DNA of 48,552 nucleotides from Bacteroidales bacterium (GTDB lineage Bacteria > Bacteroidota > Bacteroidia > Bacteroidales > UBA1556): the NCBI GenBank assembly GCA_016937295.1, contig JAFGWF010000092.1, forward strand, positions 1-48,552. Reading direction: 5' to 3'. Positions 42,428-48,552 of the stretch are shown piece by piece. The first letter of the stretch is position 1, and every line of letters starts with the position of its first letter. Position numbers and translations under genes: made by a program. The notes beneath the pieces are model-generated. The model saw only the letters and a program-made list of their open reading frames with translations. It was not told the DNA's origin and searched no databases.

Positions 42428-43261
42428 TTACCTATTGGCGTCAGTAATCAATCTGGCTTCTTCGATGATAGTTTTAACTTTTTGCTCTGTCAGGCCTAAT
42501 TGTAGGAGCAGCTCTGATTTGTCTAATATTTCGCGGCAGAGTACAATGCCTTTTTCCATCAAAACGGCCTTTAACGCGTTTGGGATAGTGTTGACAGTGG
42601 TGATAGGATGCAAGCCCGACTTATCAATCCAGTTTCTTAATCCATGACCGTTTGGATAGTCCCAACCGACTAACCGCAATCCCACACATTTTCCAAAGTC
42701 TTCAGCATCAGTGGTAAATCGCGTATTGGAGACTATCATACCAGTGATTTTTCGCGTTTCACCTTCCGATTCCCATTTTTGCTTCATGTCCAAAAATCGA
42801 CTTTGAATATATAGTGGAATCTTTACGTCATTTTTCTGTCCTTGGTCTCGATGAAACTTGCATTCCACCATGATTTTCTCAAAGCTGTTTTCAGCCACTA
42901 CATCCAGTTCGTGGCGCACGCATCGACCCATTTCAATCACGTTGGTTTGGGTTTCAAAACCTTTGCTTTCCAACAGACGTGCAACAAATTTTTCAAAGGG
43001 ATAGCCTCCAGGGCCAAGCTCAAAAACCGCGCGTTTCAACTGGTATCTACCTGCCGCAAAACCGGAAATCTTTCGCAATTGCAATAAGGCTCTTTGATAA
43101 ATCTTTGCTGTCGAAACGCCATCTTTCACCGTCTTTAGCACATGATTGAGCACTTTTGTTGCCTCGTCTGGACGAGCTCCGGATCGTATTAAGGCGTCAA
43201 CTATCTTTGATTCATCAAAATCAACTAATTCTCCGTTTGCTTTCCGAATTTTTATGCTCAT
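42428..43261 (-). CDS. ATP-cone plus Mrr-like PD-(D/E)xK endonuclease fusion
   Basis: N-terminal IRKANGELVDFDESKI..AL (ATP cone); FEKFVARLL..KGF; HELDVVA..VECKFH; SNTRFT.DA; alternative start TTG 43267. Confidence 0.85.
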   Translation of the reverse strand: MSIKIRKANGELVDFDESKIVDALIRSGARPDEATKVLNHVLKTVKDGVSTAKIYQRALLQLRKISGFAAGRYQLKRAVFELGPGGYPFEKFVARLLESKGFETQTNVIEMGRCVRHELDVVAENSFEKIMVECKFHRDQGQKNDVKIPLYIQSRFLDMKQKWESEGETRKITGMIVSNTRFTTDAEDFGKCVGLRLVGWDYPNGHGLRNWIDKSGLHPITTVNTIPNALKAVLMEKGIVLCREILDKSELLLQLGLTEQKVKTIIEEARLITDANR

Positions 43262-43292
43262 AATCAATATTTTAAGTGGATTGAAGTCGCGT

Positions 43293-47235: not shown

Positions 47236-48231
47236 ATGAAGATTAGAAAAGAATTTTACCTCGGTTTTGTGGCCACTTTTACCATTGTGAGTGCCTATTT
47301 TGGATATAATTTTCTGAGAGGAAAGGATTTATTAGACCGGACTTATAACTACTATATTATTTATGATAAAATTGCCGGCCTTTCCGAATCAAATTCCGTT
47401 TATTTAAATGGGTTCAAAATCGGCTTAGTGAGCGGCTTAGACCTTCTACAATCTGACGGATCAAATCGCGTTTTAGTGGAAATTCAAGTGGATAAAACCG
47501 TCCGGATTCCCAAAAATTCCGTAGCCAAAATTGAATCCGATTTTCTTGGTGTGAACACTATTTCCATACTTTTTAGCAATAATCCGGATTTTGCCGAAGA
47601 CGGCGACACTCTCAACTCGGCCATTGCAACCACCATTCAAGAAGAGGTTTCTATGCAAATTCTGCCTCTGAAAGCCAAGACCGAGAATATGTTAGCCACT
47701 TTAGATACTGTGCTTGAGTCGATTAAGTATGTTTTTAATGAAGAAACACAACGATCATTAGCTAATTCATTTGCTAGCATTCAAAAAACTATCAATAATA
47801 TCGAACATTCTTCCTTTACTTTAGATACCGTTCTCACCACTCAAAAAGGAGTTATCAGTAGAATTTTGGAAAATGTTCATTCGATTACTTCCAACCTCAA
47901 GAATAATAACGAGCAAATCAATCGGGCGATTGCCAATTTTTCCAATTTCAGCGACAGTTTAGCAAAAATTGATTTACGCAAAACCATCTATGCCGCCGAA
48001 AAAGCTTTGTCTGATTTTCAGTCCATTTCCGACAAAATCAATAGGGGAGAAGGCAGCCTTGGAATGCTTGTAAATAACGACACACTCTATCACGAGTTGG
48101 AAGCCGCCTCACACGAACTCAACAAGTTGGTTGAAGACATCAAACTAAACCCACAGCGTTATCTGCATTTTTCCGTCTTTGGCCGCAGTCCCAAGCGTAA
48201 TGTTTATGTCGATCCGGATTCTGTGAAGTAA
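47236..48231 (+). CDS. mlaD: MlaD/MCE-family protein
   Basis: TM, GL...V.LNG.KIG.V MCE domain, helical region, GEGSLG.L.N...LY..L..L..DIK.NP.RY.HFSVFG. Confidence 0.9.
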   Translation: MKIRKEFYLGFVATFTIVSAYFGYNFLRGKDLLDRTYNYYIIYDKIAGLSESNSVYLNGFKIGLVSGLDLLQSDGSNRVLVEIQVDKTVRIPKNSVAKIESDFLGVNTISILFSNNPDFAEDGDTLNSAIATTIQEEVSMQILPLKAKTENMLATLDTVLESIKYVFNEETQRSLANSFASIQKTINNIEHSSFTLDTVLTTQKGVISRILENVHSITSNLKNNNEQINRAIANFSNFSDSLAKIDLRKTIYAAEKALSDFQSISDKINRGEGSLGMLVNNDTLYHELEAASHELNKLVEDIKLNPQRYLHFSVFGRSPKRNVYVDPDSVK

Positions 48232-48552
48232 GGGTTGTAAAGTGGCTTCGCCGTAAAGGGTTGTAAAGTGGCTTCGCCGTAAAGGATTGTAAAGTGGCTT
48301 CGCCGGAAGGTGTGGTAAAGTGGCTTTGCCGGAATGGATTGTAAAGTGGCTTCGCCGTAAAGGGTTGTAAAGTGGCTTCGCCGGAAAGGTTGGTAAAGTG
48401 GCTTCGCCGTAAAGGGTTGTAAAGTGGCTTCGCCGTAAGGGGTTGTAAAGTGGCTGCGCCGTAAGGGGTTGTAAAGTGGCTTCGCCGTAAAGGGTTGTAA
48501 AGTGGCTTCGCCGTAAGGGGTTGTAAAGTGGCTTCGCCGTAAGGGGTTGTAA
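48228..48552. repeat. 26-bp tandem array (GTAAAGTGGCTTCGCC core plus 10-nt variable linker), at least 12 units, truncated by the window end
   Basis: Cores start at 48237, 48263, 48289 ... 48523 (exact 26-nt period), partial core at 48549; linker consensus GTAARGGGTT. Confidence 0.97.

Follow-up and report, generated by a model that had tools for sequence, protein, structure and literature searches.

A 26-nt mini-hairpin array after mlaD in a Bacteroidales genome is probably a gene-less arm of a four-helix-bundle cassette

Proteins of the S23p family (PF05635) are encoded by ORF-bearing intervening sequences of 23S rRNA, as in Coxiella and Leptospira, and have no known function according to the accessible part of PMC4990558; their homology to Avd is stated in the accessible part of PMC10053308. 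A second line of background concerns very short DNA hairpins. In the available text of PMC13037366, only GNA among the GCNNNGC loops gives a DNA mini-hairpin (Tm, 70-76 C), the RNA counterpart that was tested is much less stable than the DNA mini-hairpin, and standard folding models omit the stability of GNA hairpins. Here, we describe an array in which such mini-hairpins recur. The window that we analyzed is the whole of contig C190 (48,552 nt) of a Bacteroidales genome, G000, and G005 is its sister genome. Overall, we think it reasonably likely that the array is a left arm, locally expanded and without its gene, of a small selfish four-helix-bundle cassette, produced by the mechanism set out below.

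The array starts at the stop codon of mlaD and runs off the contig end (Table 1). Its twelve 16-nt cores, the first at 48237, repeat every 26 nt to 48523, and TRF reports a period of 26 with 12.4 copies and 0% indels; the period-26 run statistic is 189 for the window versus 0 in 30 of 30 shuffles. The cores differ at 2 of 192 nt and the linkers, which have six variants and no C, at 15 of 120 nt, so that all of the counts given by an earlier, sequence-only reading of this DNA (12 units, the 26-nt period, and both sets of differences) were reproduced. The uneven variation between core and linker that it claimed is clear from the raw counts (P = 2e-5 over all differences) and weaker when distinct changes are compared (7 in linkers versus 2 in cores, P = 0.02). 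Both core differences lie in the loop (TTC to TTT in unit 4 and TTC to TGC in unit 9). On the minus strand these loops read AAA and GCA, so GNA is kept in unit 9, as the earlier reading noted, and lost in unit 4, and the GC-GNA-GC sequence (the d(GCGNAGC) motif) is present in 11 of the 12 units.

Table 1. Positions of the array, its parts, and the preceding gene in the window
Feature	Position	Strand	Remark
G-rich "left arm" array	48228..48552	+	Partial linker, then 12 units; truncated by contig end
Unit: 7-nt word + GGCTNCGCC + 10-nt word	within 48228..48552	+	
First GTAA word	48228..48231	+	TAA is the mlaD stop codon (48229-48231)
First GGC-GAA-GCC mini-hairpin	48244..48252	-	Recurs per 26 nt to 48530-48538
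First 10-nt linker word	48253..48262	+	Also in four-helix-bundle cassette arms of G002, G007, and G010
Host gene mlaD, MlaD/MCE-domain protein (PF02470)	47236..48231	+	Context only

A constant period in which one part of each unit is conserved and another varies, together with three open frames on the minus strand, could also be presented by a coding repeat or by a guide-RNA array of CRISPR-like or TIGR-like type. CRISPR arrays have unique spacers longer than about 25 nt between their repeats, and TIGR arrays have a Tas gene beside units that carry unique guide spacers. The linkers here are 10 nt long and near-copies of each other, in six near-identical variants, unlike those of a CRISPR array. 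A TIGR array does not fit either, as there are no unique spacers and the gene preceding the array, on its near side, is mlaD; no effector gene lies 5' of the array. Periods of 23 to 25 nt within the family break any frame, and the open frames follow from base composition. We give this explanation almost no credence.

The array is real. It ends a contig and single-copy unitigs break at 48259, as would be seen at an assembly-edge artefact, the outcome that the sequence-only reading had set against its own proposal. We regard such an artefact as extremely improbable, since parts of the array are matched by public unitigs from two samples of a single study, in several cases with no differences (48270-48316 in run X1, which may be the source sample of the assembly, and three pieces in X2), and since the same mlaD site of G005 has a complete array of related units. 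Word depth in X1 is about 30 times higher over the array than over mlaD, as expected for a multi-copy family. The order and number of the last units in the window may be wrong.

The array belongs to a modular intergenic family. G000 has 23 sites of it, and a further 24 were counted in G005, where the count covers the loci that were fetched rather than the whole genome; related arrays are on G000 contigs C8, C18, C79, C88, C110, C182, and C274. The family is built from five recurrent modules, namely a decamer, a unit of word plus hairpin, an 8-mer, a second and longer type of hairpin, and a segment of roughly 50 nt. The 10-nt linker also occurs on its own, in pure, hairpin-free arrays on C70 and C11. 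Of 15 genus genomes, 2 have triple-hairpin arrays. Among the 12 genus genomes with mlaD, an array of this family follows the gene in G000 and G005 only, the other 10 having none, and the C terminus of MlaD in G000 is shorter than in all 10 array-free orthologues. The extragenic, dispersed, and species-specific character of the family was confirmed. The mlaD arrays of G000 and G005 have no identical units in common despite MlaD proteins that are 98% identical, which indicates fast unit turnover. Units differ less within arrays than between them (3.35 versus 5.15 differences for 83 units in 13 arrays; 0 of 2,000 permutations), and this homogenization shows slippage-like turnover.

Other repeats and genes were noted nearby. 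Arrays of other words occupy the same mlaD end in G007 and G010 (L264 and L267), making this end a repeat hot spot. Behind the mlaD array of G005 lies a variable island (L013:342-5200) that comprises a C-rich array of another word, an interrupted RhuM-family ORF, and an AAA ATPase. Paralogous secreted proteins of about 650 amino acids (PKD domains and a T9SS tail, with domains taken from L015) end directly in the first word of the arm at several unrelated sites (L015:351-2306, L018, L020, and L137; in G000, C244, the end of C88, and the start of C280), as if gene and arm had been duplicated together. G000 also holds unrelated repeat families of 52-nt palindromic units and heptamer arrays (C178:29552-29857, C30:479-599, C8:3352-3469, C295:3498-3636, and C127:11712-11843). 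Elsewhere in the window, 42428-43267 on the minus strand encodes a protein with ATP-cone and Mrr-type nuclease domains, flanked by genes for a PfkB kinase and an LptD-like protein.

Constraint on the units was assessed over slots defined by flanking words near an intact hairpin (115 slots, of which 3 non-hairpins were dropped, leaving 112). The C-rich strand reads G-N-A in 108 of these, with N being A in 55, C in 48, T in 4, and G in 1, which matches the GNA rule for DNA mini-hairpins as given in the accessible text of PMC13037366. The full GC-GNA-GC 7-mer is retained in 102 slots; the inner pair is broken in 6, and GNA is lost in 4. The outer pair is lost on both sides together in 14 slots and is changed to A-T in one. 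Given the weaker RNA counterpart, this constraint suggests a property of single-stranded DNA rather than a structure of the mRNA. Unit spacing over 74 intervals is 26 nt in 62, 25 nt in 10, 24 nt in 1, and 23 nt in 1. Family words and linkers contain 6 C in 1,952 nt, and because relatives use GTCATT words, we take C-free linkers to be a lineage trait; the invariance of AA in the words is partly by construction, as the search pattern demanded AA. The earlier proposal of selection on stem, spacing, and linkers thus stands in part. The retained loop and the joint loss or A-T exchange of the outer pair favor it, and the six broken inner stems, the spacing range of 23 to 26 nt, the C-containing linkers of relatives, and the slippage-like homogenization speak against it. 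The 16-nt core that it delimited is not a conserved unit, since the 7 nt 5' of the hairpin differ among members of the family.

With the G-rich strand taken as the direction of each site and with simple ORF calls, the repeat lies after the end of a gene at 23 sites and leads away from the start of a gene at 16, and 8 sites could not be assigned. At 16 of the 22 gene-end sites checked, which represent 9 independent genes, it starts right at the stop codon (L017, the remaining gene-end site, was omitted as a doubtful gene call). This exact start and the GNA constraint would suit a host 3'-end element, or a structured RNA or single-stranded DNA scaffold, that acts on the stability or termination of the mlaD transcript, and the available part of PMC4679880 puts forward intergenic heptamer repeats as possible regulatory sites. 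We consider a host element of this kind improbable. The array is missing after mlaD in most genus genomes, the family faces both ways relative to genes, and at another orthologous site, the expanded arm is oppositely oriented in G000 and G005. Moreover, the array folds no better than shuffles, either as sense RNA (z = +1.28) or as minus-strand DNA (z = -0.22), in models without GNA-hairpin stability, and Rfam gives no match at the gathering score (the best E values, 0.39 and 4.1, are both outside the array). The beads-on-a-string host scaffold envisaged by the sequence-only reading consequently finds no support, given the array-free mlaD genes and the two orientations relative to transcription. 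Agreement between site orientation and local G>C skew is not significant (29 of 47 sites). The prfC-guaA interval of G000 contains both arms and no gene, and this two-arm stretch folds at -63.5 versus -44.7 +/- 4.3 kcal/mol. In G005, prfC and guaA are on separate contigs (L170 and L171), with one arm each, facing accessory genes.

The same kind of arm is found around a gene in same-genus relatives. In G002, G007, and G010, a PF05635/TIGR02436 four-helix-bundle gene (E = 5.5e-26 to PF05635) is located between cysD and cysN, with inverted arms, of which the G-rich one, made of GTAA words, follows the stop codon of cysD and the C-rich one precedes cysN. The start of the G-rich arm coincides with the upstream stop codon or lies just behind it, the C-rich arm ends before the next start codon, and the solo arms described here obey the same placement rule. 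Three of the six window linkers recur in these cassettes, 10 times in 1.5 kb flanks; the other three were not seen there, and we could trace none of modules C, D, and E to a cassette. The guess of the sequence-only reading that a four-helix-bundle gene might be the partner is borne out in these relatives and in the subfamily loci described below. We are confident that the array is, in identity, the arm of such a cassette.

Neither cysD nor cysN is in the G000 assembly. The cognate subfamily gene was not found in G000, which is 92% complete, has no contig under 2,503 nt, and has the array running off a contig, or in G005, and no such gene is beside any family site in the ORF lists of the two genomes, which were used without a profile scan. 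A 499-nt unitig of run X1 (depth, 22.4, compared with 20.3 for the window) matches a subfamily gene over 82 nt with 13 differences. It hints at a cognate gene on a short unbinned piece, but it is metagenomic and may belong to another organism, and we do not count it as evidence. At the cysD 3' end, the four-helix-bundle cassette and its arm words differ between G005, G009, and the group of G002, G007, and G010 (L083, L079, L226, L256, and L257; cysD was named by Pfam in L177 only and by matching gene ends in the other loci). PF05635 proteins were detected in 13 of the 14 genomes searched, with up to 24 matches in one. The subfamily protein is predicted to be a four-helix bundle (pLDDT, 92.6), and the subfamily profile matches 2GSC (XCC0516, a pentamer; E = 2.1e-8).

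Across 401 genomes of the order, phased GCTNCGC triples with lineage-specific linkers occur in 47 (reversed control, 20) and GTAA-decamer triples in 18 (reversed-pattern control, 0), and four-helix-bundle genes in those genomes are, by eye, commonly between inverted word arrays. In a tree of 60 four-helix-bundle proteins (109 columns, with many forks unresolved and with partial and most stop-containing hits omitted), six proteins from four host families fall in one clade (94/93, the bootstrap of 94 being below the star level of the tool). Five of them were scored by the strict 10-nt pattern, and the sixth has 11-nt GTCATT words; three single-match positives are outside the clade. This subfamily has 43 loci in 41 of the 401 genomes; 30 were fetched, 25 of them new. 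Of the 25 new loci, 12 are flanked by two or more phased words, against 0 of 54 loci of other four-helix-bundle genes (P = 1e-7), and 13 are under the word threshold, some with other words (L227, L236, and L246). The GCGNAGC hairpin is present in the flanks of 8 of the 25 new loci versus 6 of the 54 control loci, and the only hairpin count that differs is that of two or more hairpins (3 of 25 versus 0 of 54, P = 0.03). The exact 7+GGCTTCGCC+10 unit of the window is found in L234 and L238. With three loci set aside for their short flanks, predicted arm pairing reaches z < -3 in 14 of the remaining 27, and the whole L234 cassette folds at z = -5.06.

Co-occurrence at the genome level is weak. 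The subfamily is present in 5 of 17 other genomes with GTAA-decamer arrays versus 41 of 400 overall (P = 0.02), and the other 12 of the 17 have no subfamily match at E 1e-30. As a gene and its flanks are inherited together, the linkage of word and clade reflects shared inheritance and does not prove binding. Two metagenome pattern scans gave no match, and a GTDB scan gave 9 stretches, all in one uncultured Bacteroidales record set. The module-C pattern occurs in 2 of 401 class genomes, one of them a foreign match with no four-helix-bundle-sized ORF in the ORF list.

These comparisons bear on whether the array could be a neutral minisatellite of independent origin, in which stable hairpins promote slippage and the likeness to cassette arms is a convergence of AT/G-rich words. 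Such an origin would account for the homogenization within arrays, for neighboring units with common variants, and for an assembly without a cognate gene. It does not account for the exact window linkers in the cassette arms of the same genus, for the same 7+9+10 unit in distant cassettes, for the absence of word arrays from the 54 other four-helix-bundle loci, or for a decamer pattern that the reversed control lacks, and we judge it very unlikely.

The family is also dispersed, intergenic, species-specific, and modular in the manner of a non-autonomous REP/BIME-type element that depends on a Y1 (RAYT) transposase for its movement, and for which the four-helix-bundle gene would be mere cargo. 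G000 encodes a RAYT (NF047646, 87.4 bits against a cut-off of 80; L024:1915-2469, C199), one lone hairpin unit is present among the repeats of that RAYT (C199:53258-53269), and GCGAAGC-type loops occur in published REPs (PMC2817692, in the part accessible). However, this RAYT is flanked by a different, longer palindrome, and neither RAYT nor IS200-type genes of G000 are flanked by the repeat described here. The units run head to tail in one orientation with a stem of 2 to 3 bp, whereas REPs are alternating 20-40-nt palindromes, and arrays of pure 10-mers without hairpins exist. We therefore consider movement by a RAYT quite unlikely. No mobilizing enzyme was identified for the cassette or its arms, the resident RAYT having a different repeat.

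For the cassette arm that we favor, we propose a mechanism that is tentative as a whole and, in our estimation, possible rather than probable. The intact form is a PF05635/TIGR02436 gene enclosed by inverted arrays of 10-11-nt GT(A/C)A words, and the two arms are predicted to form a long base-paired stem that encloses the gene, like the ends of the intervening sequences of 23S rRNA. The Avd-like and putatively pentameric protein would recognize, in single-stranded form, either its cognate words or GNA mini-hairpins. Such binding would account for the match between word type and protein subfamily and for the retention of GNA in both orientations. Short-homology recombination by host enzymes would seed the arms at stop codons preceded by G, and the arms would then grow and homogenize by slippage. 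The copy in the window would need no host function and is probably a passive leftover. A bolder version, which we put forward as speculation and think unlikely, is that PF05635 proteins read, in a sequence-specific way, a class of mobile elements that has not been described before, with a separate word for each subfamily. For the subfamily considered here, the words would be GT(A/C)A decamers of about one helical turn, punctuated by GNA mini-hairpins; the protein, like Avd with its reverse transcriptase, would recruit a host or trans-acting polymerase; and copying of arrays into G-preceded stop codons would build hot spots for swaps of accessory genes.

The value of these observations lies in the link between word arrays and a protein subfamily rather than in one array, as it offers the functionally uncharacterized PF05635 family a candidate DNA or RNA partner that can be tested. 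The pairing of subfamily and word supplies a concrete predicted ligand for PF05635, with the words of other subfamilies as built-in negative controls. It could further explain the source of some short intergenic repeats that fragment Bacteroidales assemblies and that lie where gene order differs between species. We found no published description of word-array arms around these genes among the openly accessible papers searched.

Compared with known systems, the array shares features with several and coincides with none of them. Like REP/BIME elements with a RAYT, as far as they are described in the available text of PMC2817692, the family is intergenic, dispersed, species-specific, mosaic, hairpin bearing, and rapidly turned over. 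It differs from them in its single head-to-tail orientation, its 7-9-nt palindrome, its GTAA words in place of the GTAG head on a long stem, and its single lone unit near a RAYT that has its own other repeat; extragenic dispersal is thus in common, and the GTAG-headed alternating palindromes and a flanked cognate rayt gene are not. The TAACTGA heptamer repeats of Beggiatoaceae, Cyanobacteria, and Bacteroidetes (PMC4679880) are likewise short, strand-biased direct-repeat words that are intergenic, patchy, and found at contig ends, whereas the words here are decamers with phased hairpins, and the accessible part of that paper names no four-helix-bundle link. The d(GCGNAGC) mini-hairpins of the G4 origin, the N4 promoter, and ssiA (PMC13037366, accessible part) follow the same GNA loop rule as nearly all of the family slots. 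The hairpins predicted here differ in forming a tandem chromosomal array without a demonstrated primase or polymerase partner. The four-helix-bundle model and the profile match to XCC0516 liken the cassette protein to Avd of diversity-generating retroelements; in contrast to those elements, no reverse transcriptase or template repeat was seen beside the cassettes that we viewed. The likeness to the intervening sequences of 23S rRNA includes, in the intact cassettes of relatives, a PF05635 protein and complementary ends that are predicted to form a stem. Unlike those sequences, the cassettes are located between protein-coding genes (such as cysD and cysN) and the window array after mlaD, and the arms are arrays of 10-11-nt words with mini-hairpins that have spread as solo copies, the one in the window with no gene seen and with no partner arm in the sequence. 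The array would act like an arm of such an intervening sequence but, because it is not in rRNA, is no member of that group.
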